Positions 2,973 to 43,927 are shown, counted from the stretch's first letter. The stretch is 64,000 nucleotides of DNA from Prevotellaceae bacterium UBA4301 (GCA_002395775.1 DGUV01000075.1:30677-94676); one strand, 5' to 3'. Notes: generated by a model from the sequence alone, not told the origin. Made by a program: numbers and translations.

Positions 2973-4409
2973 ATGGCTAAGGACAAAGTGATGTACGTCT
3001 GCTCGGAATGTGGACAGGAAGCAACGAAGTGGGTGGGCAAGTGCCCGGCCTGCGGACAGTGGAACACCATGAAGGAATTCAAAGTCGGTCCCTCTCCCCG
3101 CTCCTCTCGCGGGGGAGAGAGCCTCGCCCTACACTTGCAGGGCAGGGAGCGTCCACAGTTGTTACAGGACATTCGGGCCGACCAGGAAGTGCGCATCGAC
3201 ATGGGCGACCAAGAGCTCAACCGTGTCCTGGGCGGTGGACTGGTGCAGGGCAGCCTCGTCCTGCTTGGCGGCGAACCGGGCATCGGCAAGAGCACACTCA
3301 TCCTGCAAACCGTCCTCCGCCTTCGTGGCAAGAAGGTGCTCTACATCAGCGGGGAAGAAAGCGCCCGCCAAATCAAACTTCGCGCCGACCGTCTCTCTCC
3401 CTCACGGGGGGAGCAGGGAGAGGGGCTTCTCATCCTATGCGAAACCTCTCTCGAGGCCATCTACGAACACATCCAGGAGGAACAGCCCGACCTGGTGGTC
3501 ATCGACTCCATTCAGACCATCTCCACCGATTCCGTAGAATCCTCCCCGGGTAGCCTCAGCCAAATACGCGAATGCGCCGCCTCCTTGTTGAAGTTTGTCA
3601 AATCGTCAGGACAAGCCCTCCCCCCCACGGGCGAAGCGGGAAGAGGGACCGGACCAAGCTGTTCCATCATCCTCATCGGCCACATCACCAAGGAGGGCAC
3701 GCTGGCCGGGCCCAAGGTGCTGGAGCACATCGTCGATTGCGTCCTCCAGTTCGAGGGCGACCAGCACTACATGTACCGCATCCTGCGCAGTCAGAAGAAC
3801 CGCTTCGGCAGCACCTCCGAACTGGGCATCTATGAAATGTTGCAAGGCGGCCTGCGCCAAGTTTCCAACCCCAGCGAGCTCCTTCTCACCGAAGGCCGGG
3901 AGGGACTGAGCGGCATCGCCATCTGTTCGGCCATCGAGGGCGTGCGTCCGCTCCTCATCGAGACTCAGGCGCTGGTCTCCACCGCAGCCTACGGCACTCC
4001 GCAGCGCTCCGCCACGGGTTTCGACACGCGTCGCTTGGCCATGCTTCTGGCCGTACTGGAGAAGCGCGTGGGCTTCAAACTGGCGCAGAAGGATGTCTTC
4101 CTCAACATCGCCGGCGGACTGCGCGTCACCGACCCTGCCATGGACCTCAGCGTCATCGCGGCCGTCCTTTCCAGCAATGTGGACGCGGCCATCGAAGCCG
4201 ACACCTGCATGTGTGGCGAAGTGGGTCTCTCGGGTGAGATTCGTCCCGTGGCCCGCCTCGAACAGCGCATTGCCGAAGCCGAGAAACTGGGCTTCCGCCG
4301 CATGCTCGTCCCGGCACAAAGCTTCAAGGGCATCAATCAGGACCGACTCAACATAGAGATTGTTCCCGTCCGCCGCGTCGCCGAGGCCGTAAGGGCACTC
4401 TTCGGATAA
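2973..4409 (+). CDS. radA: DNA repair protein RadA
   Basis: It has an N-terminal zinc ribbon (CSECGQEATKWVGKCPACGQWNT), a Walker A motif (GGEPGIGKST), the KNRFG motif, and a Lon-like C-terminal domain. Confidence 0.95.
   Translation: MAKDKVMYVCSECGQEATKWVGKCPACGQWNTMKEFKVGPSPRSSRGGESLALHLQGRERPQLLQDIRADQEVRIDMGDQELNRVLGGGLVQGSLVLLGGEPGIGKSTLILQTVLRLRGKKVLYISGEESARQIKLRADRLSPSRGEQGEGLLILCETSLEAIYEHIQEEQPDLVVIDSIQTISTDSVESSPGSLSQIRECAASLLKFVKSSGQALPPTGEAGRGTGPSCSIILIGHITKEGTLAGPKVLEHIVDCVLQFEGDQHYMYRILRSQKNRFGSTSELGIYEMLQGGLRQVSNPSELLLTEGREGLSGIAICSAIEGVRPLLIETQALVSTAAYGTPQRSATGFDTRRLAMLLAVLEKRVGFKLAQKDVFLNIAGGLRVTDPAMDLSVIAAVLSSNVDAAIEADTCMCGEVGLSGEIRPVARLEQRIAEAEKLGFRRMLVPAQSFKGINQDRLNIEIVPVRRVAEAVRALFG
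3088..3150. repeat. Family A GC-rich palindromic arm(s), in-frame in radA
   Basis: cctctccccgctcctctcgcgggggagagag plus gccctacacttgcagggc. Encodes GPSPRSSRGGESLALHLQGRE in the linker after the zinc finger. Confidence 0.7.
3393..3427. repeat. Family A arm, in-frame in radA
   Basis: ctctctccctcacggggggagcagggagaggggct. Its reverse complement nearly equals the mnmA left arm. Encodes SPSRGEQGEG. Confidence 0.75.
3614..3650. repeat. Family A arm, in-frame in the radA ATPase domain
   Basis: agccctcccccccacgggcgaagcgggaagagggacc encodes ALPPTGEAGRGTG. Compare the mnmA right arm, which encodes [11 protein letters not shown]. Confidence 0.8.
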
Positions 4410-6635: not shown

Positions 6636-7721
6636 ATGGACAAAGACACTTACGAGAAGCAACGGGCATTTGCCGGCGAGAAGAAGCCTTCCATGAAGCG
6701 ACGCTGCGTGGGCCACGACTACACCGAGCGCCAAATGTACATGGTCACCATGACCGTCGAAGGCCGTCGCCCGCTGCTCGGCACGCTCGTAGGCAACAAC
6801 GAAACCGATGCCCAAGTCGAACTCACAGAACTCGGGAGGGCGGTGGAAGAAGAATGGTGGGCATGTACGCAACATCATCCAGAGATAGAAGTTATTGCCT
6901 TGCAAATCATGCCAGACCACATACATGGGATTTTATTTGTAAGGGAAAAAATGGAGAAGCCCTTAGGCATGGCTCTTCGAGGATTCAAACAAAGCTGTAA
7001 CAAGCACTTCCGCAGCATCATTCTAAAAAAAGAGGTCCCGTCTGTTGCGTCTGTTGCGCCAGTCCCGTCTGTTGCGTTGCCAACGCAACCTACAATACCC
7101 CAAACGCAACCAACAACACCCCAAACGCAACCAACAACCCCCCAGCGCCCAGCCTACGACCGCAACCACGGCCTCCTCTTTGCCCCCGGCTACAACGACA
7201 AGCTCCTCCTGCGCGCCGGCCAACTGGAAGTATGGAAAGCCTACCTGCGCGACAACCCACGGCGCCTTTTTGTCAAGCGCCAGCATCCCGAATTATTCCG
7301 CGTGCGCTTCGACCTCACCATCGGCAGCCAGACCTACTCGGCCCTGGGCAACCACTTCCTGCTCAGCCACCCCCTGCGCATAGCAGTGCAATGTTCGCGC
7401 CGCATGACCGAGACCCAGATAGAGCAACGGGTGGAGCAGGCCCTCGAAGCAGCCCGCCAAGGGGCAGTACACGTCTCCCCCGCCATTTCGCCCGGTGAGA
7501 AAGCCGTCATGCGCGCCCTCCTCAATGCCCACCGCCCCATCATCTTCATCGAGGAAAACGGCCTCACGCCCTACACCAAACCCGGAGGTGAGCTCTTCGA
7601 AGCCTGCAACCGAGGCCAACTGCTCATCCTCGCCCCATGGGAGCACCACAACGAGCGCATACTGATAACGCGAGACAAATGCCTCGCGCTAAACCAAATG
7701 GCAGCAGAAATCTGTAAGTAA
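6636..7721 (+). CDS. REP-associated tyrosine transposase (RAYT)/IS200-like Y1 HUH domain protein with a C-terminal extension
   Basis: GHDYTERQMYMVTMTVEGRRPLLG...IMPDHIHGILFV (HUH motif) ...GYNDKLL...AYLRDNPRR (Tyr motif region). It also has a proline-rich repeat insert and about 150 extra C-terminal residues. Confidence 0.7.
   Translation: MDKDTYEKQRAFAGEKKPSMKRRCVGHDYTERQMYMVTMTVEGRRPLLGTLVGNNETDAQVELTELGRAVEEEWWACTQHHPEIEVIALQIMPDHIHGILFVREKMEKPLGMALRGFKQSCNKHFRSIILKKEVPSVASVAPVPSVALPTQPTIPQTQPTTPQTQPTTPQRPAYDRNHGLLFAPGYNDKLLLRAGQLEVWKAYLRDNPRRLFVKRQHPELFRVRFDLTIGSQTYSALGNHFLLSHPLRIAVQCSRRMTETQIEQRVEQALEAARQGAVHVSPAISPGEKAVMRALLNAHRPIIFIEENGLTPYTKPGGELFEACNRGQLLILAPWEHHNERILITRDKCLALNQMAAEICK
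7035..7141. repeat. Palindromic tandem-repeat insert inside the RAYT-like ORF
   Basis: gtcccgtctgttgcg occurs twice. The central perfect palindrome is gttgcgttg-c-caacgcaac. ccccaaacgcaaccaacaaca then occurs twice. The region encodes PSVASVAPVPSVALPTQPTIPQTQPTTPQTQPTTPQ. Confidence 0.85.
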
Positions 7722-7739
7722 CCAACCCCTTACGGGCAA

Positions 7740-7880
7740 GATTCCCAATCATCGCCGAATCACTACCCAATCATCGCAAATTTACTTACCAATGATGAGC
7801 CGATGATTGGTAAGTGATTTCGTGATCATTGGTAATCTATTTTCTGATCATTGGGAATCTATTTCCTGATGATTGGGAAC
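7740..7880. repeat. Dyad-symmetric array of 22-bp-spaced CCAATSATS boxes
   Basis: Three cccaatcatcg-type boxes start at 7744, 7766 and 7788. Four inverted gatsattgg boxes have their attgg cores at 7806, 7828, 7850 and 7873. The symmetry centre is near 7800. Confidence 0.85.
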
Positions 7881-7977: not shown

Positions 7978-9408
7978 TTATTGGGTTTTACCCAAAATTA
8001 TATTCACCAGTGCCGTCACGTCAGCGATAGACCTACTGCCATCGTTATTCACATCGGCTGCCTTCATATCATAGTTGTCAGACTCCGTTGCCTTACCCAG
8101 AATGATGTTCACGAGAGCCGTCACGTCAGCAATAGTCTGGGAACCATCCCTGTTTACATCGCCAGCCAGAGTCGTTTCAGCCTCAATGGGCAATACCAAT
8201 TCAGCTGTACCCGTGTATTCCAGCCACGCCTTATTCGCAGGCATCGCCGTTACCGTTTCATCGGGTTTCACGAATCCCAACTTCCCCGAGGCCGTGATGC
8301 CAAGGACGTACTTTTGGGGTTTACCCTTCTCATCAACATCTATTTTGTTGTTTGCATCGAAGGATGCTCCATTCGTTGTTGTAGTACCTTGGGTTCCAAC
8401 GGAAGCTCCTGTGTACTTGTCAAAATACATAGTCCCATCGGTATTGCAGAAGAAAGTGCCTTTCAGCAGATTTGCACCTGTATAAGAGGTAGATGGTGTT
8501 GCACTAGAAGCCACAACTGTTGGTGCACCTTCGGGTACGATATAGTTCCCTGTCTTACTGCTGCATTCGAGCAGGACTGGCGTACATGCAGGAACACTTC
8601 CTTCGATTGCCTCTATCTCAACAGTGCCGTCTTCACCGATGTTCGCAACAGCATAGGCGCTCTGTATATTTCCCCCGATTGTGTAAGGGAATGCAGTGTA
8701 ATATGTTGCGTACCATTTCCCTCCATAGGAGAATGATGGATTCACATTTAATGCAGTAACTGGCTCAATGTACCACTTGTGTTTGGCATTAGAAGAACTG
8801 TAGTTCTCGGTCATACCAAAACTTCCGCCCTCATCCAAGAAGTCTTCTGTACCGATTGTAATTGTCTTTGAAATATTATAAGATGGGACAGCCCCTGTTC
8901 CAGTTAGTTTTTCTGACACACGGTACATTGTTGAAGCCCCTGTTCCCGATACTTTTTTTACTGTAGCGAAAAGGTTGTTGAAGGTACAATTGATATTACT
9001 TGTTACATACTCTCCTGTTGTAAGTTGTACTAATCCCGTGGATTGCCCTTGGATGTCATAGTTGTCATCGGAATTCTGTTTTAGGTATATAATTGTAGAG
9101 GGTAGTTCACATGCCGAGTCATCCACCATGTGAATGTCTGTCTTCAGGTATGCACCGGCACAAGATAAGGCTGCAGGAACACCATAGTCATCTGCTATTT
9201 TCACAAATAACATGGTATAACTAAACATGTGCTTGGCCCCGTTTCCCGCAGTTGCAATAACAGTTGAATAATCGAACTTATTGTTCTCCAAACTGATGTA
9301 ATTGCCCGTACCGACATTCTTCACACGGTAATAGCCCGTTCCGTTTAACTGAGCATAAGCAGTAAGCGTTATCAATAGCAGGAACGAAATTACATAAATC
9401 TTTTTCAT
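7978..9408 (-). CDS. Secreted hypothetical protein with two C-terminal dockerin-type repeats
   Basis: It has a signal peptide (MKKIYVISFLLLITLTAYA). It ends with DVNRDGSQTIADVTALVNIILGK and DVNNDGSRSIADVTALVNIILGK. The body is paralogous to the C-terminal module of the neighbouring giant protein. Confidence 0.7.
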   Translation of the reverse strand: MKKIYVISFLLLITLTAYAQLNGTGYYRVKNVGTGNYISLENNKFDYSTVIATAGNGAKHMFSYTMLFVKIADDYGVPAALSCAGAYLKTDIHMVDDSACELPSTIIYLKQNSDDNYDIQGQSTGLVQLTTGEYVTSNINCTFNNLFATVKKVSGTGASTMYRVSEKLTGTGAVPSYNISKTITIGTEDFLDEGGSFGMTENYSSSNAKHKWYIEPVTALNVNPSFSYGGKWYATYYTAFPYTIGGNIQSAYAVANIGEDGTVEIEAIEGSVPACTPVLLECSSKTGNYIVPEGAPTVVASSATPSTSYTGANLLKGTFFCNTDGTMYFDKYTGASVGTQGTTTTNGASFDANNKIDVDEKGKPQKYVLGITASGKLGFVKPDETVTAMPANKAWLEYTGTAELVLPIEAETTLAGDVNRDGSQTIADVTALVNIILGKATESDNYDMKAADVNNDGSRSIADVTALVNIILGKTQ

Positions 9409-12400: not shown

Positions 12401-15400
12401 ATAGTCAAGTCCTTGATGGTTACATCCAGACCTTCGCCCTCCAATACGATGGCACGCTTGCCCTGGGCAGAGGTAATCACATGATTGTTACCATTGATGG
12501 TCACACTCTTGTTTACATTCACGTTATACTTATCGCTCGGACTGGTTGTGACAGTGGTCAGCGTGAAGTCATCCACAATGTCGATGGTCTGACCAGCCTC
12601 GGCAGCATCAACGGCAGCCTGCAGTTTGCGATAGAGCTTATCACCAACCTTGGCTACAGCGCCATCGATGGTGAGGACGTTATTCAGTTCTTCATAAACA
12701 TTATTTTCAAGAGTAGCACCGTCGTTGCGTCCAACGATGTAGTCATAAGTCGTTATTTCATAATCCTTGTAGGCATTGACATCGCTCTGGATGATGGTGG
12801 TGTTCTTAACAGTGTTGTTGGTAACAGCACCGGCAGAGTAGCCTGCAATACCACCCATGTCACGATACGCCTTGATGGTCAAACCGTCAACAGTACAATT
12901 GTTGATGGTAGAACCTGCGGTAGCATAACCAAAGATACCACCTACCTTATCGCCATTGTCGTACTCGTCACCAAGTTTCTCAGGTACAGAGGTGATGGTG
13001 CCGCCAATGACGCGGCAGTTTTCAATAGTGGGACCGTTAGAGGTGTATGCTACAATACCACCAGCATAGTGGGAACTCGTCAGGTTGACGTTTTCAACAG
13101 TCAGGTTCTTGATGGTGCCGTTAACGACGGAACCGAACAGACCAGCTACAGCGTGCTTAGGAGTCTGATCCACAACCGTCACATTCTTAATGGTGTGGCC
13201 ATTGCCGTCGAATACGCCATCGAACGACTGACCGGAATAAGCCACCAGATTGCCAATAGGCGTCCAGTTCTCCTCACCGCTCAGATCGAGGTCAGCAACC
13301 AGCAGAACATTCTTGCTCGTAACAGTTTTGTCAGCAGTATTCACTGCATCGCGGAAGGCCTTCAGTTCTTCTACATTTGAAATACGGATGGGAACATCAA
13401 CTGTTGTGCAGTAGCCACTATAGGTGGCAGGAGTACCGCCTTCCCATGTGATAGAAACTGACGAGAGATACAAAGCACCACTATTAGAACGAATACCAAC
13501 ATAAGCATAGTCGCCATCGAATGTTACAGTTCCGGTTTCAGTAAGTGAACCAATCTTTGTACCCTGATTGCTATTACCATCGGTAGCATACAAATCTGAT
13601 GCTACAGTGTAAGCGGTGTTAGAGCCATAAATGTCTATCGTATTTGAACCACTTTCAACAGCAATGGCTACACTCTTGACCTTACCACCTGAAGTCGTGC
13701 TTACAATACCGCTATTGCTATTCTTCGAACGCAACTGAATAGCACCAGTTGAATTTTTAGCTGAGTTTCCTGCATAAACAGCATTTGATGTCTTTTTGAC
13801 ATTTGAGAAATCAGTATATGTTGTTCCTGTTGCTACAAGGTCTGATGCGGTAATCTCGTCCGTTACTTCGGTTACACTACCCTCTGTATCCGCTGTTGCA
13901 AACACAGCATAATACTTCAGGTCACTGGTGGCCATGGTAGCGGAAGTAACGAAGGTGGGAGCCTCATCGATCTCGCCGTCAATGGCCTCTGCTACCCAAC
14001 CTACGAAGGTCTTACCTTCGATGGCTTCGGGAGCGGCAGGGAACTCAACGGCTGCATCCTCAAGGGCAGTGGTCATGGTCTCCTCGCCATTAACGCTCCA
14101 AACAACATTGTGTTCGGGAATCTTCTCGAAGTTGATTGTTACGGTGCAGTCGCTGGCAGGAGTTACAGTGAAGATATTGCCTTCCTGGGAAACAGTTGCT
14201 TCACCACTACTTACGGTGTACGCAGGATTGGCGAAGCGATAGCCTTCAGCTGGAGTAGCAGTGATAACTTTGCCATCAATACTTACCGTTCCGCCCTCTG
14301 AAGCCTGAGGCTCTACGGTCCAAACCGCATCAACAACGGTCAGGGTATAGCTGGCAGGTGTTGGGGTATGGTATGCAGAAGTACGTGCGCCACTGGCTGT
14401 GATGGTGGTTTCACCAAGACCCACGAGCGTAACAGTGCCGTCGCTGGCTACGGTTGCCACATTGGTGTTAGAGCTTTCGTAAACAACAGTTCCGTCATAT
14501 TCGCCCTTGATTAACTCAGGAGCCGTGAAGCCCTTGTTCAGCGCAACCTCAAATTCCGTTTCGTCGCCGAATGAGAAGGTCACGTCCTTATGGTCGTTAG
14601 AAATAAGTTTGTTGTTTGCATCCAACTCATAGGTTGAGTTGTATTTCTTTAAATCGCCATAAATAACAACCTGGTCTCCAACCTCAATGTTATTCTCTGA
14701 AGTGAATTTGTCTCCATTATAGCTCTTGCCACGATAGGCTTGCAACTGGTCAGCCGTGGTTGAGCCATCAACAGAAATATTGTAAGAGATGTTACCGTAT
14801 TGCGAACTATATGCAGTTACAATCTCAGAAACAATACCCTTCACATAAACACCTGTCAGCCCCGTTCCTGCATCAATAACTGCACGAGCCTCTGCAACAG
14901 TATAAGGCTTTTCGGCACTACCATCGTTTGCATTGGGGTCTCTTGCTACGTTAAGCGTATAACTTGCAGATGCGCTATTATATTCATCATTGCCTGCGAA
15001 GGTGGCGGTGATGACAGTGGTGCCAGCAGCAACGAGGGTCACTGCACCAGTCTCTGCATGTACAGTAGCAACACCTTCGTTGCTGCTTGAATACGTTATG
15101 CCTGTTACAGTAGGATCAGCAGTTGCCGCGGGTGCAGTGAATTCCGAACCCATTGTGGCTTCGTATGTAGTCTGAGGGAATGAGAGGGTAACGGGAGTCT
15201 TCATTGCAGTAGGTTCTGCAATAGAAATTGGGCCAACACCAACATTAGCTCCCTTTGTAAAGACTAACCGCACATATCTGTCGGCAGCATCAAAATCCTT
15301 AGAGGTCGCAAGCTCCATTGTTGAATTCTGGCTCCCGGTGATAGCTAATGTCTCTAACTCTGTAAATGTCTCCCCGTCAGAAGAATGTTGAACAGAAATA

Positions 15401-16179
15401 GAAGATTCAGTAGCACCGCCTATCATTTTAACACCAATAGTCACTTTGCCAGGCTGACCGTCAGTCTTGATTTGGATATAATCGCCGGTACCATCAAACT
15501 TTATATAATATGGAGCATTTGTTGCCGAATAATCGGAACCTAAACTATTAGTAGAAACACCTGTGAGAGCTTTAAAGCTAGCACTTGTACCGCCATCCCA
15601 TGTGAAAGGCAAAGTTGCATAATCTATTTGGGGCGTGTCACCTCCAGTAGATTCATAAGTATAAGATATATTAAATACACAGACTCCTTTCGATATATTA
15701 GTTACGGTTACTGTTAAAACCTTGCCCGTTGCATGTTGATTGGAAGTTACAGTAACATCATTCGTTCCATTTAAACTACCAGTGCCGACTGATGTCTCAC
15801 CAACCTTCAGTGTAACGCTACCAGCAGTTCCACTGAACCCCCCGAACTTAGCACTCATAGATGTAATATTAACATCCGAAGGCAAAGTTGTAGTAAATGT
15901 TATGCTTGTAGCAGGGCTTTTTGAAGAGCCCACCTGTGAATACTGTACCCCGCTTCCTGATACTTTCCCTTGAGTAAACGAAGTGGTACCTACTGTTGTA
16001 ATAGTCCAAGAGTTGTTTTTACTATCGCTACCAGTAACAGAGGCTGCATTAATTTTCACATTATCATTGCCAAACGTAATGGTGCCAGTTTCATCCGCCC
16101 AGAGATTTCCTCCAGCTCCTATAAGCATAAGCATCATGAGGAGCCATGATTTAAGATTTAAGTAAAATTTTGTTTTCAT
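9484..16179 (-). CDS. Giant secreted multi-domain protein with Big_2-like Ig domains, a GLUG/beta-helix region, a CHB_HEX_C-like domain and a C-terminal dockerin pair
   Basis: 2231 aa ORF with a signal peptide. It contains repeated Ig-like segments (ATVHAETGAVTLVAAGTTVITATFAG...) and GGIVAY/GGIFGY/GGIAGY GLUG-like motifs in a beta-helix-like stretch. It ends with DVNRDGKISIADVTALVNIILGK and DVNCDTKRTIADVTALVNIILGK. Confidence 0.8.
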   Translation of the reverse strand: MKTKFYLNLKSWLLMMLMLIGAGGNLWADETGTITFGNDNVKINAASVTGSDSKNNSWTITTVGTTSFTQGKVSGSGVQYSQVGSSKSPATSITFTTTLPSDVNITSMSAKFGGFSGTAGSVTLKVGETSVGTGSLNGTNDVTVTSNQHATGKVLTVTVTNISKGVCVFNISYTYESTGGDTPQIDYATLPFTWDGGTSASFKALTGVSTNSLGSDYSATNAPYYIKFDGTGDYIQIKTDGQPGKVTIGVKMIGGATESSISVQHSSDGETFTELETLAITGSQNSTMELATSKDFDAADRYVRLVFTKGANVGVGPISIAEPTAMKTPVTLSFPQTTYEATMGSEFTAPAATADPTVTGITYSSSNEGVATVHAETGAVTLVAAGTTVITATFAGNDEYNSASASYTLNVARDPNANDGSAEKPYTVAEARAVIDAGTGLTGVYVKGIVSEIVTAYSSQYGNISYNISVDGSTTADQLQAYRGKSYNGDKFTSENNIEVGDQVVIYGDLKKYNSTYELDANNKLISNDHKDVTFSFGDETEFEVALNKGFTAPELIKGEYDGTVVYESSNTNVATVASDGTVTLVGLGETTITASGARTSAYHTPTPASYTLTVVDAVWTVEPQASEGGTVSIDGKVITATPAEGYRFANPAYTVSSGEATVSQEGNIFTVTPASDCTVTINFEKIPEHNVVWSVNGEETMTTALEDAAVEFPAAPEAIEGKTFVGWVAEAIDGEIDEAPTFVTSATMATSDLKYYAVFATADTEGSVTEVTDEITASDLVATGTTYTDFSNVKKTSNAVYAGNSAKNSTGAIQLRSKNSNSGIVSTTSGGKVKSVAIAVESGSNTIDIYGSNTAYTVASDLYATDGNSNQGTKIGSLTETGTVTFDGDYAYVGIRSNSGALYLSSVSITWEGGTPATYSGYCTTVDVPIRISNVEELKAFRDAVNTADKTVTSKNVLLVADLDLSGEENWTPIGNLVAYSGQSFDGVFDGNGHTIKNVTVVDQTPKHAVAGLFGSVVNGTIKNLTVENVNLTSSHYAGGIVAYTSNGPTIENCRVIGGTITSVPEKLGDEYDNGDKVGGIFGYATAGSTINNCTVDGLTIKAYRDMGGIAGYSAGAVTNNTVKNTTIIQSDVNAYKDYEITTYDYIVGRNDGATLENNVYEELNNVLTIDGAVAKVGDKLYRKLQAAVDAAEAGQTIDIVDDFTLTTVTTSPSDKYNVNVNKSVTINGNNHVITSAQGKRAIVLEGEGLDVTIKDLTIKSNKAEACLWIASNLTCTLDNTVLDGTNGKSYNQPLTIGSISNEGRVTLNVTNGSVIKTNDAGTAHYAIIAGHPADITVTDSKLIGWANVYLKPDAAGSTVKIEGSEMKSQGLSGNSNNFSILVTEGGNNTIEVKDTKITSSAKEGTYQSLITLGGEGNVVKLLGETTYETNDKTWGAITHNWGSLMNNKLYLDDTTKAAFAGYLDGSHQETIDPADETGLYPVNYVSEIHYYWAVEGGYDGGYYSFADPFKNGWLADGEFIALQKNITLTEDITCQLASGTSFNFLLGDFTADKNDHSVALNTGVTVQTDKQTNIFSAAEAGYVIVETKTETGYSYTAELAQPIIFHDGGEYEGELTVAIAGEGVKYTLNGGAEQTYSAPFTISETTTVKAWAEKDGVKSDEVEKTFTIVAKQAGAEVPDGYYNIKTNDGKFVNVAGRKTVTLVENAEGKAGTVIRVNADAEGVKVLRSQGVDLPGYAKKAMNYVPEIVQLAVDKLHAEGAGELLGTTGYDKIMDKFNESFDYNLYLKKDGEAYRIYGRTPSMKPVVDFYAENKANVDAKLPELEEFINKAIQKVLEKTNGSGASVLVPFSLQTIWERMDSTLTNPADDEAKFYEEVLSSEANVWNFAYQTAMLYWGNLKNHPRFAEIQDKLGDYSKYIDKVENIRPNFKYYIVPSASGVDFISEGNVAIKDASTAWTMEPVSKFEVEIPETNKVGDKYYTTLYTDFAYTLPEGVKAMKVTSIGESGCYGYAETEEIDAQSIAEQTPILLVSETAGSKALELSKTGSAVTDNLLKGPDYLISEYKIKTPQVESLFDMAKSILGESAYETYLKKYEHLMLKNAGTVGNKYFFGLSKDECKEVDVNVCVLENVAEFGTIFASDKENINANKAFLVSDIYTEIRLMKAGDVNRDGKISIADVTALVNIILGKVTEENNPDNFDFGAADVNCDTKRTIADVTALVNIILGKPNN

Positions 16180-20305: not shown

Positions 20306-21070
20306 TCATATCTTCCCTTGTTCGCGATAGCTGTAGTAGCCTGTGTCGGCAACGATGATGTGGTCGGTGAACTGGATGTTCATGGTCTCACAGGCCGACT
20401 GTACGGAGCGGGTGAGGCGGTCGTCCTCGCGACTGGGGCGGAGATTGCCGCTGGGATGGTTGTGGCAAAGGATGAGGGCGGTGGCCCGTTGGAGCAGGGC
20501 CTGGCGCATGACCTCGCGCACATCGACGGCGGTGCCTGCGATGCCTCCGCGACTGATGAGGGCAGAGGAGATGATGCTGTGGTTTTGGCGCAGGAAGAGC
20601 ACGCGGCACTCCTCGAGCGGAAGGTCGCGCATGTCGGCAAAGTATTCGTAGGCCTGACTGCTGTCGGTGATGCAGCGGCGCGACACCACTTCCTCGCGAC
20701 GCCGACGGCTGCCCAGTTCGCAGGCTGCGAGCAGGGTGATGGCCTTGGCCTCGCCGATGCCCTTGTAGCGACTGGTGAGGTCGTTGATGGAGAGGCGTCC
20801 CAGGGCATTGAGACTGTTGTCGCAGTCGTGCAGGACGCGTTGCATGAGTCCGACGGCTGTCTCCTCGGCATTGCCGCTGCCGATGAGTATGGCCAGCAGC
20901 TCGGCATCGGAGAGGGCTGCGGACCCGTGGGCCATCATCTTCTCACGAGGGCGTGCGTCAAGGGGGAGGGATTTTATTGTTAATGATTTTCTTCCAATAG
21001 AAGGCTCACCCCCTTGCCCCTCCCTATTAAGGAGGGGGAATGTTACGTCTAATGTCCCGGTCTTTTTCAT
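20306..21070 (-). CDS. radC: RadC-family JAB/MPN domain protein
   Basis: SLPLDARPREKM, AELLAILIGSG and the JAMM motif HNHPSGNLRPSREDDRLT. The first ATG is at 21070 and the longer ORF begins with TTG. Confidence 0.85.
   Translation of the reverse strand: MKKTGTLDVTFPLLNREGQGGEPSIGRKSLTIKSLPLDARPREKMMAHGSAALSDAELLAILIGSGNAEETAVGLMQRVLHDCDNSLNALGRLSINDLTSRYKGIGEAKAITLLAACELGSRRRREEVVSRRCITDSSQAYEYFADMRDLPLEECRVLFLRQNHSIISSALISRGGIAGTAVDVREVMRQALLQRATALILCHNHPSGNLRPSREDDRLTRSVQSACETMNIQFTDHIIVADTGYYSYREQGKI
21003..21042. repeat. Family A arm inside the radC 5' coding end
   Basis: ggctcacccccttgcccctccctattaaggagggggaatg. On the minus strand it encodes TFPLLNREGQGGEPS, ahead of the conserved RadC N-terminal motif. 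Confidence 0.65.
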
Positions 21071-25162: not shown

Positions 25163-25313
25163 ATATATAAAAGTTTAACGGGTTAACGGGTTAACGGGGT
25201 AACGGGGGGAATTTTTATGCGTTTTATGTGGGTTATTGGGGTAACTTGCAGGGGTTATATGATTTTTCGGGTGCAAAAGTAGTAAAAAATTTGCACGTAT
25301 CAAAAAAAGTCTG

Positions 25314-27304: not shown

Positions 27305-28266
27305 CCATCATCTGCGGAGGGGACTCTGCAGAACATGATGTCAGCATGCGCAGTGCAGCCGGCATCGAATCGTTCCTCGACAAGGAGCGCTACACGGTTT
27401 ACAAAGTAGAGATACACGCCCGTCACTGGGAAGCCATACTTGGTGACGGAAGCCGGAGCAAGGTGGACCGCAACGACTTCACCTTCCTGGACAACGGGAA
27501 ACAGGTGAAGCCCGACTACGCCTATATCACCATCCACGGTGCCCCGGGCGAGAATGGTGTCCTGCAGGGCTACTTCGACCTGATAGGTATGCCCTACTCC
27601 ACCTGCAACGTACTCGTCGAGGCCATGACCTACGACAAGTTTGTGCTGAACACCTACATGCGTGGCCTGGGCGTGAGCGTAGCCGACAGTCTGACCGTGA
27701 AGATTGGTCACGACAAGGAAGTGAGCGACGAGGACATCATCTCGCGCATCGGCCTGCCCTGCTTCGTGAAGCCCGCACGCGGCGGAAGCAGTTTCGGTAC
27801 CACAAAGGTGAAGACGCCCGAGCAGTTGCGCCCGGCCATCGAGGTGGCCCTGAAGGAGGGCGAGGACGTGATGGTGGAAGCCTTCATGCAAGGCACGGAA
27901 CTCACCTGCGGCTGCTACAAGACACGGACGGGCGGCCACGTGTTCCCCATCACGGAAGTGGTCTCGAAGAACGAATTCTTCGACTATGCCGCCAAATACA
28001 ACAACGAAAGCGACGAAATCACTCCGGCCCGCATCTCCGACCGTCTCACTGAACGCGTGCAGCAACTGACCTCGATGATCTATGACATCCTGGGCTGCCA
28101 CGGCATCATCCGCATCGACTACATCATCACCGAGGGCGAAAAGATTAATCTCTTGGAAATCAACACCACGCCGGGCATGACGGCCACCAGCTTCATTCCC
28201 CAGCAGGTGCGTGCCGCCGGGCTGGACATCAAGGATGTGCTGACGGAGATTATTGAGGATAAATAG
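27286..28266 (+). CDS. ddl: D-alanine--D-alanine ligase
   Basis: MEKKTIAIICGGDSAEHDVS...HGAPGENG..QG... with an ATP-grasp C-terminal half. Confidence 0.9.
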   Translation: MEKKTIAIICGGDSAEHDVSMRSAAGIESFLDKERYTVYKVEIHARHWEAILGDGSRSKVDRNDFTFLDNGKQVKPDYAYITIHGAPGENGVLQGYFDLIGMPYSTCNVLVEAMTYDKFVLNTYMRGLGVSVADSLTVKIGHDKEVSDEDIISRIGLPCFVKPARGGSSFGTTKVKTPEQLRPAIEVALKEGEDVMVEAFMQGTELTCGCYKTRTGGHVFPITEVVSKNEFFDYAAKYNNESDEITPARISDRLTERVQQLTSMIYDILGCHGIIRIDYIITEGEKINLLEINTTPGMTATSFIPQQVRAAGLDIKDVLTEIIEDK

Positions 28267-28404
28267 GCCCCTACCCCCAATCCCCTCCCGAGGGAGGGGC
28301 GTGAACACAGGCATAAAGATAAGTTACAATATATGAATATCGGGAAAAACATAATTAGCAATAATGCCCACTCCTCCCCCTCGGAGGAGGTCGGAAGAGG
28401 GGCC
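28266..28404. repeat. Family A inverted doublet (REPIN/MITE-like) spanning the ddl-acyltransferase junction
   Basis: Left arm: ggcccctacccccaatcccctcccgagggaggggcg. Right arm: gcccactcctccccctcggaggaggtcggaagaggggcc. The reverse complement of the right arm resembles the left arm. A 64-bp AT-rich core between them contains the ATG at 28333. Confidence 0.7.
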
Positions 28405-31039: not shown

Positions 31040-31170
31040 CAGAAAACGGCAAAGTTCTTTGTTTTTTCGCTCGCTTAATCGTACCTTTAACCTGCGGTTT
31101 TAGGTACTACCGCTCGGAAAAAACAAAAGTTCTTTGTTTTTTCGCTCGCTTAATCGTACCTTTGTGCCCA
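31040..31170 (+). repeat. Family B: duplicated promoter-like module with a hairpin, upstream of mnmA
   Basis: agttctttgttttttcgctcgcttaatcgtaccttt occurs twice. The first copy runs into the palindrome gtacctttaacc tgc ggttttaggtac. The second copy ends in the -7 box TACCTTTG (31157-31164). Confidence 0.8.
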
Positions 31171-31182
31171 AATAGCAAGGGC

Positions 31183-32430
31183 ATGAAGAATATAGCTGTA
31201 CTGATATCGGGCGGCGTGGACAGCGCCGTAGTGGTTCACCAATTGTGTGAACACGGTTACAAACCCGACCTTCATTATATTAAGATAGGTATGGAAGGCG
31301 AGGACTCGTCTTGCTCGGCCGAGGAGGATATTGAACTCTCGCAGGCCACGGCAAGGAAGTATGGTCTGAAGCTGGAAGTCACCGACCTGCAGAAAGAATA
31401 CTGGGAAAAGGTGGTGGGCTATGCCATAGAGCGCGTGAAGGAAGGACTGACGCCGAACCCCGACGTAATGTGCAACCGACTCATCAAGTTCGGAGCCTTC
31501 GAGGAACGCATCGGCAAGGATTACGACCTCGTGGCAACGGGGCACTATGCAACACGCAAGGCCCCTCTCCCTGCTCCCCCCGTGGGGGGGAGAGTCTTGC
31601 CTTTCCTGTTGAATGATGTTGAACTAAAGACAGAAACGCTGGAGGACATTGCCCTCGAAGGAGAAGCCCTCCCCCCCACGGGGGGAGCGGGGAGAGGGGC
31701 CATTTTTCTGGGCACCGCCAAGGACCCCGTGAAGGACCAGACGGACTTCCTTGCCCAACTCACCTACGAACAACTCCAGCATACCATCTTCCCCATTGGT
31801 CACCTAATGAAGGAAGAGGTGCGGGACATTGCCATCCGGGCAGGATTGCCCAGTGCGCGCCGTAAGGACAGTCAGGGCATCTGCTTCCTGGGCAAGATAA
31901 ACTACAACGACTTCCTGCGCCGTTTTCTGGGCGAACAGGAAGGCCGCATCATCGACATTGAGACGGGTAAGGTGGTGGGTAGGCACCGGGGATTCTGGTT
32001 CCACACCATCGGGCAGCGCAAGGGATTGGGACTGAGCGGCGGCCCCTGGTTCGTGGTGAAGAAGAACGTCAAGAAGAACATTGTCTTCGTGGCCCGCGGC
32101 TGGGACACGCAGTTGCAGTATGGTCACGACTTCCGCCTGGCCGACATGCACTTCATCACAAGCAATCCTTGGGAAGAAGAGACGAATGAAGAGGGGAACG
32201 TGAAGCGCGGAGAATCAGAATTAATCAAGAAGGGCTTGCCCATTTCGTTCAAGATTCGGCACGTCGATCACTTCATGCCCGGCATCATCACACTGGACGA
32301 CGAAGGCTATCACATCCACTCCGACGAACCCATTCAGGGCATTGCCCCCGGCCAGTTCGGATGCATCTACGACGCCGAACACCGCATCTGCTACGGCAGT
32401 GGCGAGATAGCCATATACAAAGACCGATAA
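31183..32430 (+). CDS. mnmA: tRNA 2-thiouridine(34) synthase MnmA
   Basis: It has the PP-loop [29 protein letters not shown] and [10 protein letters not shown]. The start was set at the ATG at 31183. The upstream ORF extension is translated repeat sequence. Confidence 0.9.
31561..31700. repeat. Family A inverted doublet inserted in-frame in mnmA
   Basis: Left arm: gcccctctccctgctccccccgtgggggggagag. The reverse complement of the right arm is gcccctctccccgctccccccgtgggggggagggc. The core is about 70 bp. The region encodes [47 protein letters not shown]. Confidence 0.85.
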
Positions 32431-34209: not shown

Positions 34210-34845
34210 TTACAATCTGGTTACGTTTGGTCTTGTAATCATATTGTAATGAGTCATCAGCCTGCGCCATTTGAAGTAACCAAAGACTGCAATAATGACG
34301 TAGAGGCCGTAGAGCGAGGCCTTGAAGGGAATGTCCTTGTAGAAATAAAGCACACAGGTGACCACATCGACGGCTATCCAAATGAACCACTGTTCCAGAT
34401 ATTTGTGTGCCAATGCCCAGATGCCCAGGATGCTGAGGGCCGTCGTGAAGGAGTCGGCAAGGGGCACGTTGGAATTGGTGAACGTAACGAGCAGCCAATA
34501 AATGGTGGCCCACACCGCAGCCGTGAGCAACAGCCACGGCAAGACAAGGCGACGCGGGAAATGGCATATGGGCCTCTCCCCACCCCCTCCCTCAAGGGAA
34601 GGGGCTTCCACTCCCCCAACGGCTTTGACAGGGCGGAGCCAACGCCACCAACCGTAGATGGTCATCAACAGATAGTAGAACTCCATGCCGCAGTCGGCAT
34701 AGAGTCCTTTCTGATAGTAAAGCACGATGCCCAGGCTCTGCATGAGGAATCCTACGAACCACATCCAGATGCTGGCCTTGAACTCCAGCAGAATGTAGGC
34801 CAAGCCGAGCAGGGTGGTGACGATGTCAAGCCAATTCACAGACAT
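34210..34845 (-). CDS. PnuC-family transporter, probably the thiamine-type PnuT given the operon riboswitch
   Basis: 211 aa multi-pass protein with YGWWRW and a WxxxxNxxLA-like segment. It lies downstream of the TonB receptor, under a TPP riboswitch. Confidence 0.75.
   Translation of the reverse strand: MSVNWLDIVTTLLGLAYILLEFKASIWMWFVGFLMQSLGIVLYYQKGLYADCGMEFYYLLMTIYGWWRWLRPVKAVGGVEAPSLEGGGGERPICHFPRRLVLPWLLLTAAVWATIYWLLVTFTNSNVPLADSFTTALSILGIWALAHKYLEQWFIWIAVDVVTCVLYFYKDIPFKASLYGLYVIIAVFGYFKWRRLMTHYNMITRPNVTRL
34570..34616. repeat. Family A arm, in-frame in the PnuC-family gene
   Basis: ggcctctccccaccccctccctcaagggaaggggcttccactccccc. On the minus strand it encodes GGVEAPSLEGGGGERP, in the loop after YGWWRW. 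Confidence 0.7.
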
Positions 34846-34848
34846 AGC

Positions 34849-34973
34849 GGCCCCCTCCCCTTACCCTCCCCGAGGGGAGGGAGTTGATACTTACATATAG
34901 AATTATCTTCTGCCATATTTTCCTCTTATTTGTAACCACTCCCCTCCCCTCGGGAGGGGTAAGGGGGTGGGGC
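34849..34973. repeat. Family A inverted doublet, between the TonB receptor and PnuC-family cistrons
   Basis: Left arm: ggccccctccccttaccctccccgaggggagggag. The reverse complement of the right arm is gccccacccccttacccctcccgaggggaggggagtgg. The AT-rich core is 52 bp. Confidence 0.85.
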
Positions 34974-34978
34974 TTCGA

Positions 34979-37435
34979 TTAGAACTTGAGCGTCACGCTG
35001 CCCATTGCCGTGAAGCCAGCCATGGGAACATAGCCAATCTGATAATAACGGTTCTGCTCGGGATAGTCACTGCCGACGATGGCCGAGTACACCCAGCCCG
35101 ACGAAGCATAGCGACGATTGAAGATGTTGCGCAAATCGACACCGAAGACGATGTGCTTCAGACCTTTTCTCATTTTCTCATTTCCTCCACCTCTCATTTT
35201 CAGGTCATATCCCAGGTGGATGTTGGTCTGCGTGTACTTGGGCAGCGACCGATCCTTGTTGCAGGTGTTGTCGAGATACTGTCGCGAGACGAAGTTGGTG
35301 TGCCACGTAGCCTCGAAGCCCTTGACGTGGAAGTCGGCAAAACCATTCAGTATGGCCGCAGGCGAGAAGGCGAGCGTGGAATTGTCGTAGTGGACGGTGG
35401 TGGCCGGAAGGTCGTTCCAGTCGGCATCGTAGGTCTCTACGACCTCGTCGAAGTCACGAATCGTATTCTTGCTGATGGCGGCATTGGCTTCCAGAGAGAA
35501 CCACTTCGTCACATCTACTCCGGCCGACAGCTCCATGCCCAGCCTGTAGCTGCGATGGATGTTGGTGGTCAGTTTCTCACCGATGTCACTGTAGAGGCCC
35601 GTCTGCACGAACTGGTTGTCGTAGTACATCGAGTAGAGCCCGATGCCGGCGTGCCAGCGACTGCCTTGATAGTTGTAACCCAGTTCCACGTCGTGCAGGC
35701 TCTCTGCCTTAGGGGCAGGATAGTTGCCGTTGTCGGTGAAGTTGTTGCGCTCCGGTTCACGATGGCTGAGGGCATACGACACATAGGCCGAATGGCCATT
35801 CTGGTGGAACGAGATGCCCACCTTGGGGTTCAGGAAGTCGTACTGTTTCTTGATGTCGAGGAGATGGGCCTTGTAGGTGCCGTCCGCCTGCTTCACGAAA
35901 CTGTCGTGCGTGCCGCTGGTTATATATCCCACATGGCGATACTGCACGTCGGCAAAGGCATCCCAGGCCTTCGTGATGTGGAACATGCCCTTGAGGAAGA
36001 TTTGTCCGTCGGTCTTCGTGGCATCGTTGTCGTAGTAGTGATACCAGCCATGCTTGTCGCTGAAGAGGTCGGCCTGCAACTGGTCGTTGCTGGTGTAGGT
36101 AAGGTAACCATAGTGGTTGGCCTCGAAGTTCTGCAGCGAGACTCCGCCGATGACATCCCAACGGTTGTCCTGATAGTTGACGTTCCACACCATTCCGTAG
36201 CCGTCCTGCTTCATGCCCTTGCGGCGCACGTAGTCGGCCTTGCCCAGCGATGAGCCGTCGGAGAGCACCTCGGGCAGACCAAACTTCTTGGGCTTATTCT
36301 GGAGACGGAAACTCTGGTAGTAGCCGTGTCCGTGGGTGTAATGGAGCGTTCCGCTGGTGGTCCAGTGGTCGCTGATGTGCCACGAGAGGTTCAGCAAGTT
36401 GTGATTCTGCCAGAAGTTGTCGGTGGCACCGGGATAGAAACTTCCGTCTTTCATCTGATAGCGGCCGACAGTCCATCCGCCGTTCCAGTCGGGCGTAAAG
36501 GCTTCGTAGAGTTCGTTGTAGCGTCCGAGCCCCATCTTGTAGAGGTCCTTGTAGGTCTTCACCCCGTCGTAGGAGTTCAGACTATACTCATTGTCGCCCG
36601 GGCATACGCCGTTCCAGGCCTGTCCCGTCCGCTCGTAGTTACCGATATTCTTGTAACTCAGCTTCAGCGTCCCATCATTATTAATATAGGTAAGGCCGCC
36701 ATAGTAACTGCCGCTCCGTCCGTCGGTGCCATGGATGAATCCGTCGGTGCGCGTTCCGTGGTAGGCGCCGTCGATGATGACACCTCCCCCGGCCCCTCCC
36801 AAGGAGGGGTGATTGTCCTTGCCCTTTTTCCTCTGCAGCAGCCCTGTGGAGAACGAGCCGCCGAAGTTCCAGGTGTTGTAGGAACCGCCCGAGGCCGAAA
36901 GTTCGAGCGAGGGGAAGGGGTTCGGGGCCTTCGTTTGCAGGGCCACCGTACCGCCAAAGGCTCCGTCACCATTGGTAGATGTACCCACACCGCGCTGTAT
37001 CTGGACGTTGGAGAGCAAAGCTGAGTAGGAGTTCATGTTGGCCCAGAAGACACACTGGTCCTCGGGCGAATTAAGTGACACGCCGTCCAGTGTCACGTTG
37101 ATGCGCGAGTCGCCAGCCCCACGGATGCGCATGTAGGTCGTTCCCGTGCCCAGTCCGTTCTCGCTCCAGGCCATCACGCCCGGGGTGCGGGCAAAGAGGA
37201 AGGGCAGTTCCTGTCCCGTCCGGGAGAAGGTCTCCAGTTGCTTGCGGTCGATCTTCGTCACGGCAAAGGGAGCATTCGCAGGAGCCTTTACGGCCTTCAC
37301 AACTACTTCGTTCAGAGCCTCCATCTTCATTGAGTCGGAGACCTCATTCACTTGGGCAAATCCCACCTGTGTCATACTCATCATGAGCACGACAGCTACT
37401 AATTTCTGCATAGTATTCTTATTTATAATGTTCAT
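34979..37435 (-). CDS. TonB-dependent outer-membrane receptor, probably for thiamine uptake
   Basis: 818 aa with a signal peptide, a plug domain, beta-barrel repeats and a terminal aromatic residue (TLKF). It lies directly downstream of a TPP riboswitch. Confidence 0.85.
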   Translation of the reverse strand: MNIINKNTMQKLVAVVLMMSMTQVGFAQVNEVSDSMKMEALNEVVVKAVKAPANAPFAVTKIDRKQLETFSRTGQELPFLFARTPGVMAWSENGLGTGTTYMRIRGAGDSRINVTLDGVSLNSPEDQCVFWANMNSYSALLSNVQIQRGVGTSTNGDGAFGGTVALQTKAPNPFPSLELSASGGSYNTWNFGGSFSTGLLQRKKGKDNHPSLGGAGGGVIIDGAYHGTRTDGFIHGTDGRSGSYYGGLTYINNDGTLKLSYKNIGNYERTGQAWNGVCPGDNEYSLNSYDGVKTYKDLYKMGLGRYNELYEAFTPDWNGGWTVGRYQMKDGSFYPGATDNFWQNHNLLNLSWHISDHWTTSGTLHYTHGHGYYQSFRLQNKPKKFGLPEVLSDGSSLGKADYVRRKGMKQDGYGMVWNVNYQDNRWDVIGGVSLQNFEANHYGYLTYTSNDQLQADLFSDKHGWYHYYDNDATKTDGQIFLKGMFHITKAWDAFADVQYRHVGYITSGTHDSFVKQADGTYKAHLLDIKKQYDFLNPKVGISFHQNGHSAYVSYALSHREPERNNFTDNGNYPAPKAESLHDVELGYNYQGSRWHAGIGLYSMYYDNQFVQTGLYSDIGEKLTTNIHRSYRLGMELSAGVDVTKWFSLEANAAISKNTIRDFDEVVETYDADWNDLPATTVHYDNSTLAFSPAAILNGFADFHVKGFEATWHTNFVSRQYLDNTCNKDRSLPKYTQTNIHLGYDLKMRGGGNEKMRKGLKHIVFGVDLRNIFNRRYASSGWVYSAIVGSDYPEQNRYYQIGYVPMAGFTAMGSVTLKF
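36781..36811. repeat. Family A arm, in-frame in the TonB receptor gene
   Basis: cacctcccccggcccctcccaaggaggggtg. On the minus strand it encodes HPSLGGAGGGV. Confidence 0.7.
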
Positions 37436-37437
37436 AC

Positions 37438-37514
37438 TCTCTACGCCAGCATTACCTGGTTCAGATTCTTAGGGTCTGTTCTCAGCCACGCCAAAAGACG
37501 AGGCACCCCTGATT
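37438..37514 (-). promoter_or_regulatory. TPP (THI-box) riboswitch
   Basis: The minus strand reads caggggtgcctcgtcttttggcgtggctgagaacagaccctaagaatctgaaccaggtaatgctggcgtagagag. The GGGGUGC, CUGAGA, ACCC and GAACC..GGUAAUGC..GCG elements appear in the canonical order. The element ends 2 nt before the ATG. Confidence 0.85.
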
Positions 37515-37522
37515 AACGACTG

Positions 37523-43797: not shown

Positions 43798-43927
43798 GAC
43801 CCCCTCCCCGCTCCCCCTTGTTGGGGGAGAGTAGAATGATTTGTGGGAGGGTATTCTACTTCAAAAATATAATAATAATGAAATGTAACCGCTCCCCGCC
43901 CTACAAGGGAGGGGCCGGGGGCGGGTC
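43798..43927. repeat. Family A inverted doublet between etfA and the acyl-CoA dehydrogenase gene
   Basis: Left arm: gaccccctccccgctcccccttgttgggggagag. The reverse complement of the right arm is gacccgcccccggcccctcccttgtagggcggggagcgg. The core is AT-rich. Confidence 0.8.

Follow-up and report, generated by a model that had tools for sequence, protein, structure and literature searches.

How does a tRNA-modifying enzyme come to carry a complete inverted-repeat element within its reading frame? The question is raised by mnmA, the gene for tRNA 2-thiouridine(34) synthase (415 aa; 31183..32430, plus strand), in a stretch of 64,000 nucleotides from Prevotellaceae bacterium UBA4301 (GCA_002395775.1, DGUV01000075.1:30677-94676). 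We refer to this whole stretch as the window and number positions from its first letter. Within mnmA, a palindromic doublet of 141 nt (31561..31701, plus strand) occupies exactly 47 codons (aa 127-173). We consider it probable, with a likelihood of about 0.75, that this segment is a translated member of a palindromic repeat family, GC-rich and non-autonomous, found in rumen Prevotella-like Bacteroidales, a family whose persistence and turnover would follow the account developed below. Units of this family occur either singly or as inverted pairs around a spacer, and the mnmA pair with its 72-nt spacer would add a Pro/Gly-rich loop of 47 residues at the tip of a predicted beta-hairpin without disabling the enzyme.

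The doublet inside mnmA

The doublet was delimited by repeat search, by alignment to orthologues and structures, and by fold prediction. Its left 36-nt unit (31560..31595, plus strand) consists of a tail, GCCCCTCTCCCTG, followed by the hairpin CTCCCCCC-GT-GGGGGGAG; it is open in 6 of 6 frames, and the inverted-repeat arm to which it belongs runs on to 31603. The spacer (31596..31666, plus strand) contains a core, TETLxD, that is common to an arm-less allele of strain L083 and to a third type of doublet in L084. The right 36-nt unit (31667..31702, minus strand) lies in inverted orientation, and its arm begins at 31658. Aligned over 34 nt, the left arm (31561-31594) and the reverse complement of the right (31667-31700) match at 32 positions, with 72 nt between them; the repeat search extends the arms to 44 nt (31560-31603 and 31658-31701; 86% complementary, 54 nt between), giving the terminal inverted repeats expected of a MITE, or miniature inverted-repeat transposable element. 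The arm as a 32-mer occurs at three places in the window and in none of 100 shuffles, and a 163-nt stretch containing the doublet folds as RNA at -103.7 kcal/mol (z = -8.7). The frame passes into the element directly after ATGHYATRK. An initial annotation had described a REPIN/MITE-like doublet of about 140 bp with arms alike at about 32 of 34 positions, 47 in-frame residues and a 70-bp core. All of this agrees with what we find, except that the core is lengthened to 72 nt between the 34-nt arms. Further copies of the family are dispersed in the window and in 45 metagenome stretches. The label REPIN denotes resemblance only, as the doublet has no GTAG or CGTC head and no REP-associated tyrosine transposase (RAYT) was found (REP: repetitive extragenic palindromic element).

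The gene around the insert is intact. Its start codon is the ATG at 31183, not 31184. The product scores 316 bits against the equivalog model TIGR00420 (cutoff 237) and contains the three expected Pfam domains, PF03054 (HUP, aa 3-238), PF20259 (PRC-barrel) and PF20258 (C-terminal barrel); the TIGR00420 and Pfam matches are both split at aa 125-173, where the insert lies. The PP-loop motif SGGVDS (aa 9) and the cysteine motifs NPDVMCN (aa 92) and DSQGICF (aa 229) are all present, and each is invariant across the orthologue alignment. The catalytic role of both cysteine motifs is known from E. coli MnmA. With the insert removed, comparison of the window with two lineages that carry the same insert gives a synonymous divergence (dS) of 0.79-1.53, a nonsynonymous divergence (dN) of 0.06-0.10 and a dN/dS ratio of about 0.08, within about 0.06-0.10, rates that indicate strong purifying selection on the remainder of the gene. 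The window holds one copy of mnmA; paralogues of MnmA can occur in Bacteroides genomes. The initial annotation had allowed that the gene might be a pseudogene, and the dN/dS ratio together with the intact motifs rules this out. Directly upstream of mnmA lie two copies of a 38-nt direct repeat, aaagttctttgttttttcgctcgcttaatcgtaccttt (31051-31088 and 31126-31163), each with Bacteroidetes-type promoter-like motifs (TTTG ... TAnnTTTG), which looks like a duplicated promoter; strain L082 differs from the window in the 10 nt preceding the mnmA ATG.

Relative to orthologues and to solved structures, the segment is an insertion. Among the matches listed, we surveyed 80 species-representative Bacteroidales loci and found the TGHY...KDQT motif in 74; TGHY and KDQT lie 27 residues apart in 66 of these, 28 in 4 more and 69 in the window. 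Two-piece alignment to the solved MnmA proteins of B. subtilis (9hlv), S. pneumoniae (2hma) and E. coli (2der) sets 8 residues against 49 in the window, and orthologues that are 76-88% identical (e.g. P0043, P0053, P0081) have the short form RI-EEDGLVW-LGTA. The best listed matches to the window among contigs are rumen metagenome-assembled genomes (MAGs), at 71-76% identity. The short loop of 8-12 residues that had been put forward for E. coli and Bacteroides MnmA is thus present, with 8 residues, in the solved structures and in those 66 loci, and across relatives the repeat-free orthologues lack any comparable segment of 45-50 residues. In an Alloprevotella MAG, a single unit of the family occupies the same MnmA loop. 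A second hypervariable loop of MnmA, between NPW and PISFK (32170-32240 in the window, aa ~330-352), is filled in P0037, P0042, P0047, P0048 and P0120 by hairpin units (PLPLPLEGRG) or by another repeat family encoding NRTPVRATLAERSGxRN; the latter family also fills the first loop in lineages that carry it.

The region had been placed between the catalytic and central domains of the enzyme. That placement does not hold: the insert lies inside the N-terminal PP-loop/HUP domain. In an AlphaFold2 model built from a 77-sequence alignment (mean pLDDT, the per-residue confidence score, 76; predicted template-modelling score, pTM, 0.80; a 31-sequence alignment gave pLDDT 47), the insert falls between strands 123-128 and 175-178. 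Confidence drops below pLDDT 50 at the arm-encoded residues 133-140 (left) and 161-170 (right), and is ~71-73 in the spacer, where a short strand and a helix are modelled at aa 148-158. Foldseek aligns the model to 2hma/2deu with a target-normalised TM score of 0.83. The arm-encoded parts are therefore predicted to be disordered, while the other parts are predicted to keep the MnmA fold and catalytic motifs.

A dispersed family of 36-nt units

The mnmA arms belong to a family whose unit is 36 nt, or 12 codons, long: a C/T-rich tail GCCCCTCTCCCC, then 1-3 nt, then a hairpin formed by a C-run and a G-run. Units start at R|GCCCCTCTCCCC and finish at GGGGC|Y, and whole elements have the ends R|GCCCC...GGGGC|Y. 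Across loci we count at least nine distinct stem sequences, every one of them paired with an exact complement, a count that is descriptive and not a test given that the scan required pairing; the G-rich half of the unit can also pair with the tail, which leaves the exact hairpin ambiguous. Units are open in 5-6 of 6 frames, and one window copy is open in 4.

An nhmmer census with six seed units places ~13 units in the 64 kb, seven of them in frame. Three lie in radA: at 3087..3122 (plus strand; GPSPRSSRGGES) and 3393..3428 (minus strand; LSPSRGEQGEGL), each coinciding with a gap relative to the solved RadA 5lkm, and at 3616..3651 (minus strand; ALPPTGEAGRGT), within a 16-residue gap relative to the same structure. 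Two are the mnmA arms. The remaining two lie in a PnuC-family transporter gene (34573..34608, plus strand; APSLEGGGGERP), where the unit is missing from L083 and L087, and in a gene for a TonB-dependent receptor (36779..36814, plus strand; HPSLGGAGGGV). The other window copies are two further doublets and two intergenic singles. One doublet (28266..28404) begins at the ddl stop codon and places its right arm in the called 5' end of the next open reading frame (ORF), an acyltransferase; the other (34849..34974; fold -74.8 kcal/mol, z = -5.7) fills the interval from the stop of the TonB-dependent receptor to the start of the pnuC-family gene. Of the single copies, that at 21003..21040 (plus strand) is probably intergenic, upstream of a RadC-like gene whose Pfam domains begin at aa 41 of the ORF, and that at 43798..43833 (plus strand) lies just upstream of the acyl-CoA dehydrogenase start. 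A thiamine pyrophosphate (TPP) riboswitch (RF00059, 61.9 bits; 37421-37520, minus strand) stands ahead of the receptor gene (34979..37435, minus strand) and the PnuC-family gene (34210..34845, minus strand); the pair is probably a thiamine-uptake operon (PnuT-like), not one for nicotinamide riboside uptake, and the doublet at 34849-34974 lies inside this putative operon.

A metagenome scan with an exact 31-mer of the arm recovered 45 stretches from rumen-type samples, representing ~30 distinct contexts. Thirty-six of 49 copies lie inside ORFs that stay open for more than 200 nt on both sides. Host ORFs, named by recognisable motifs and not by Pfam, include IspG, Pth, TruA, TrmH-like and RsmB-like methyltransferases, AcrB, GH2, HemN, AsnB, an NtrC-type protein and MetH, with at least 4 of the unit's 6 frames in use among them. 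Twenty of the 49 copies are in doublets, 16 of 20 doublets have lengths that are multiples of 3, and a canonical doublet of 36+36+36 = 108 nt with a homologous spacer recurs in four different genes. A strict hairpin scan detected the family in 9 of 18 Prevotella-like loci against 3 of 62 loci from Bacteroides, Phocaeicola, Parabacteroides, Paludibacter and others. In IspG, the loop near KIA(V/I)MGCIVNGPGE is occupied by a lone unit in one of two lineages and by a doublet in the other (L091 versus L105), in differing frames, which suggests independent hits on one permissive loop. Head-to-tail tandem arrays of units were also seen inside ORFs (L130 2019-2109; L127 ~350-502), the L130 array having a period of ~60 nt in which the unit is followed by AGCTTCGTTTCCGCTTG...

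It had been proposed from the mnmA case that such insertions are selected to be frame-neutral or are otherwise purged. The doublet is indeed in frame in a constrained gene, but frame-neutrality is partly built in, because the unit is 36 nt long and stop-free in 5-6 of 6 frames. What is mainly left for selection to filter is the length of the spacer, stop codons within it and the site of insertion. Persistence of the family in genes would accordingly have two parts: the length and composition of the unit would make the element frame- and stop-neutral, and insertions outside permissive loops would be removed by selection.

Alleles at the mnmA site and how they may have arisen

Alleles at the mnmA site differ between strains that are otherwise nearly identical. 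L082, which comes from the same study, matches the window at 98% identity over 15 kb, and the mnmA doublet is the most divergent 200-nt bin between the two (117/200), truncated alignment ends aside. In L082 this position is taken by another doublet whose arms match each other, and the flanks are identical to within ~6 nt of the element. Similarly, L086 and L084 are 96-97% identical over 4 kb, yet carry the window's type and a third type, respectively. Three different doublets thus occupy an identical position in near-identical strains, a pattern that would be explained by turnover of resident elements.

The window's type of doublet is in turn common to the window, L086/L136 and L087, whose mnmA genes are only 78-85% identical while the element is 92-97% identical. 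Pair by pair, the element reaches 97, 92 and 94% nucleotide identity against 85, 81 and 78% for the rest of the gene, respectively, with sharp boundaries, and its dS is 0.05-0.14. For the whole element, this excess conservation has a binomial probability of 6e-7 to 1e-4; for the central spacer taken by itself the value is ~1e-3. A doublet in AsnB behaves likewise (112/114 identical against 76-80% in its flanks). The excess is not universal, in that the unit in the pnuC-family gene differs between clades at 5 of 36 positions, like its gene, and between L111 and L126 the spacer is replaced within flanks that are 93-96% identical. One mnmA allele, that of L135 (P0121, MBQ6188886.1), is a mosaic of two clades, A and B, that are ~15% apart: it resembles A over 31183-31362 and 31720-32319, and B over 31363-31542 and from 32320 onward, one of the breakpoints falling at the element. 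This arrangement indicates homologous recombination between species inside a core gene. From these comparisons we infer a recent spread of the element between lineages and replacement of resident doublets by recombination; the window's type would have spread far later than the genes diverged, most likely by homologous recombination for which the conserved element itself would supply the homology.

Conservation of the insert might instead be sought in the protein, if the loop had been recruited for a new interaction of MnmA and kept by peptide-level selection. Across the three lineages the peptide shows 87-96% conservation, a small strand and a helix are predicted in the spacer (pLDDT ~72), and the loop is expanded in many lineages. 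However, synonymous sites are equally conserved and the dN/dS of the insert is ~0.4-0.7, which therefore does not point to selection at the level of the peptide. Near-identical strains carry unrelated peptides at the site, 70 of the 74 scored species loci have the short loop of 27-28 residues, and unrelated proteins read the same DNA unit in several frames. We regard an adaptive protein module as very improbable.

Several points weigh against the account of a translated, mobile and recently spread doublet that we favor. Translation of the insert is deduced from the open frame, and its structural placement relies on a model whose confidence in the spacer is only moderate. Pfam detected no transposase or RAYT-like gene among 20 scanned ORFs of the window, and tblastn with IS200 TnpA and E. 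coli RAYT probes against 1.7 Mb of fetched DNA returned only a spurious match in L119, inside MetH; mobility is therefore read from distribution only. No target-site duplication of at least 5 nt was detected at 17 doublets, shorter matches being the element's own GC ends, and no clean pair of empty and filled sites was found among near-identical strains. The arm-less allele, RILADGRTETLNDLETSREVQW (L083, P0004/6/12/15), can be aligned with the type-1 spacer from end to end, and the mnmA doublet may not have arrived in one piece: an old doublet may have lost its arms and left a new loop behind, or an older loop may have acquired arms. Selection on the nucleic acid is another possible reason for the low synonymous divergence seen across the whole element. 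Finally, all sequences compared are metagenome assemblies.

The arm-less allele bears most directly on stepwise assembly, in which an older expansion of the loop (core ...TETLxD...E) was later flanked by two single units, or arms were lost in some lineages. Single units do insert alone (three times in radA, and in the pnuC-family gene, the TonB-dependent receptor, Pth and others), the type-3 doublet has the core with different, non-matching hairpins, and the IspG site has a lone unit or a doublet depending on the lineage. Yet the arms in the window are closely alike, and those of the unrelated L082 allele share an identical hairpin, as if each doublet had arisen or moved whole; many doublets also share the canonical 108-nt build with homologous spacer ends. 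Deletion of the arms, stimulated by the hairpin, accounts for L083 equally well. Stepwise origin is on balance unlikely, while being an alternative that deserves to be kept in mind.

If the nucleic-acid structure itself worked for the host, the 33-bp GC stem might act in mRNA or single-stranded DNA as a regulatory, processing or protein-binding site, and the loop would be a tolerated by-product, a proposal modelled on those made for REP and BIME (bacterial interspersed mosaic element) sequences. The fold of the doublet is very stable, divergence at synonymous sites of arm and spacer is 6-15 times lower than in the gene, stems vary between subtypes and nonetheless always pair, and intergenic copies sit precisely between genes of one operon. 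Against such a role, three unrelated doublets and an arm-less version are tolerated at one site in close relatives, and spacers vary between loci, so that they have no common sequence function. The conservation excess is not universal, as the pnuC-family unit and the replaced spacer of L111 and L126 illustrate, and the discordant distribution of alleles and the mosaic allele suit recombination better. No Rfam family matches the element; Rfam gives only sub-threshold hits to microRNA precursors, typical of any long hairpin, and a known RNA family is thereby rejected. A host function of the nucleic acid seems to us decidedly unlikely.

Could the swaps be produced by assembly? Shared arms might mislead assemblers into linking one species' flanks with another's spacer, creating apparent replacements and an over-conserved element, and the arms are indeed identical over 31-44 nt across co-occurring species. 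The window allele, however, is present in 5 contigs, and the clade-B type-1 allele is present on at least 35 contigs of up to 417 kb from different assemblers and samples and is therefore not a one-off chimera. Moreover, elements differ by 4-11 nt between lineages, the closest pair of elements (window and L086) is also the closest pair of flanks, and both the reads and the final assembly k-mers exceed the arms in length. The insertion and its frame are independent of such joining, and we give an artefact almost no credence.

Beyond the translated, recombining repeat that we prefer lies a bolder and more speculative possibility, namely a mobile system adapted to coding sequence. Here the 12-codon, six-frame-open arms would be portable recombination sites and the spacers exchangeable in-frame peptide cassettes, swapped between loci, strains and species (dS ~1) in surface loops of housekeeping enzymes, and driven either by a hairpin-recognising enzyme or by arm-primed homologous recombination. 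We think it doubtful as matters stand. If true, the abundant Prevotella of gut and rumen would carry a natural and ongoing exchange of loop cassettes, not merely old selfish scars.

Other identities were rejected. A phage origin has no backing from IMG/VR, where exact arms are absent, or from a phage collection, where blastn gave no match; the segment is too small for an intein or intron, lacks such motifs and has a continuous frame; and the analogy with uptake signal sequences fails in that the units are 12-codon insertions, not motifs made by point substitution.

Wider setting and comparison with known systems

The window has further repeats and domains apart from this family. An inverted-repeat cluster at 7739-7879, between ORFs 6636..7721 and 7978..9408, has arms of 55-58 nt that are 72-73% complementary and contain CCAATCATCG-like motifs. 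Two adjacent proteins (7981-9408 and 9487-16179, both minus strand), one of 2231 aa, each end in a dockerin type I domain (PF00404), which is unusual for Bacteroidales. Short intergenic tandem arrays, (GGGTTAAC)n, (GTTAAGR)n and (CTAATCY)n, occur in the window (~25180-25207), L082, L083 (12238-12328), L096, L103, L110 and L128, and the 98%-identical L082 has an additional 49 nt in the array at 25180. Intergenic hairpin units are often followed by a CCTCGC-AAG-CGAGG hairpin and short tandem arrays.

The two features most worth pursuing are the turnover of alleles at a single site and the divergence of elements, which is far below that of their host genes. How such elements enter genes, how proteins tolerate them and how they may seed new protein segments is now testable, and the arm-less allele that retains the spacer only looks like the seed of such a segment. 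There are practical consequences as well: in metagenomic catalogues, protein families are inflated and fragmented by the units, which also give rise to recombination hot spots within core genes and can mislead marker-gene phylogenies and strain typing. Neither a description of the family nor one of in-frame repeats in Prevotella was found in the searchable literature; an automated bulk catalogue of Bacteroidota MITEs (PMC11602168) may hold the family, unannotated.

In-frame palindromic repeats have mostly been treated as a curiosity of Rickettsia, where the Rickettsia palindromic elements (RPEs) were described (Ogata et al. 2000 Science 290:347; Ogata et al. 2002 Genome Res 12:808; summarised in PMC10969869 and PMC3733652). 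A 2024 review presents RPEs as an extreme case and only speculates on similar elements elsewhere (PMC10969869). The family described here occurs at high density in rumen Prevotella-like bacteria that are free-living, abundant and culturable and for which population data are plentiful. Like RPEs, it consists of dispersed palindromic repeats of ~100-150 bp lying in frame in many unrelated housekeeping genes whose proteins are apparently functional, it occupies permissive surface segments, and it has no transposase of its own. Unlike RPEs, its hosts are Bacteroidales, free-living rumen anaerobes, and its hairpins are built of C-runs and G-runs where those of Rickettsia are AT-rich; its modular 36-nt unit also inserts alone and encodes Pro/Gly-rich linkers predicted to be disordered; several alleles compete for one site within a species; and the element is far less diverged than the host gene. 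Given the Bacteroidales host and the GC homopolymeric composition, sequence homology to RPE families is very unlikely, and the likeness appears to be functional only.

With REP and REPIN sequences (Bertels & Rainey 2011, PMC3116915; Di Nocera et al. 2013, PMC3733652) the family shares a repeated short hairpin found singly or as an inverted doublet with a foldable spacer, and the 36-nt unit, at ~13 per 64 kb, fits the definition of a palindrome of 20-40 nt in high copy number that forms inverted doublets. Some REPs also lie inside ORFs of repair and RNA-modification genes (PMC3733652). In contrast to REPs, however, the units have neither the GTAG nor the CGTC head by which members are recognised (PMC3733652) and do not belong to the tagged REP superfamilies; they are mostly intragenic (in ORFs, 7 of the 13 units of the window and 36 of the 49 from metagenomes), where REPs are predominantly extragenic; their hairpin sequence varies widely between subtypes; and no RAYT was found in the sequence searched. 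Bacterial MITEs that can insert in frame (ERIC, Correia/NEMIS, Nezha; PMC10969869) likewise have terminal inverted repeats, a length of 100-150 bp and no transposase gene, but in-frame insertion is occasional among them, whereas here an intragenic location is the rule and no target-site duplication was detected. Inverted repeats embedded in, and translated with, coding sequence are also known from the PARCELs of Mollicutes (PMC2996958) and from mitochondrial genes of Nematomorpha (PMC6649704). PARCELs are tandem amphipathic repeat domains and the nematomorph repeats are long perfect palindromes arising within genes, and both differ from the present family in organism, size and sequence. Membership of the RPEs or of the REPs is thus not supported, and it is in mode of action that RPEs and intragenic REPs are the nearest analogues of the repeats in mnmA.

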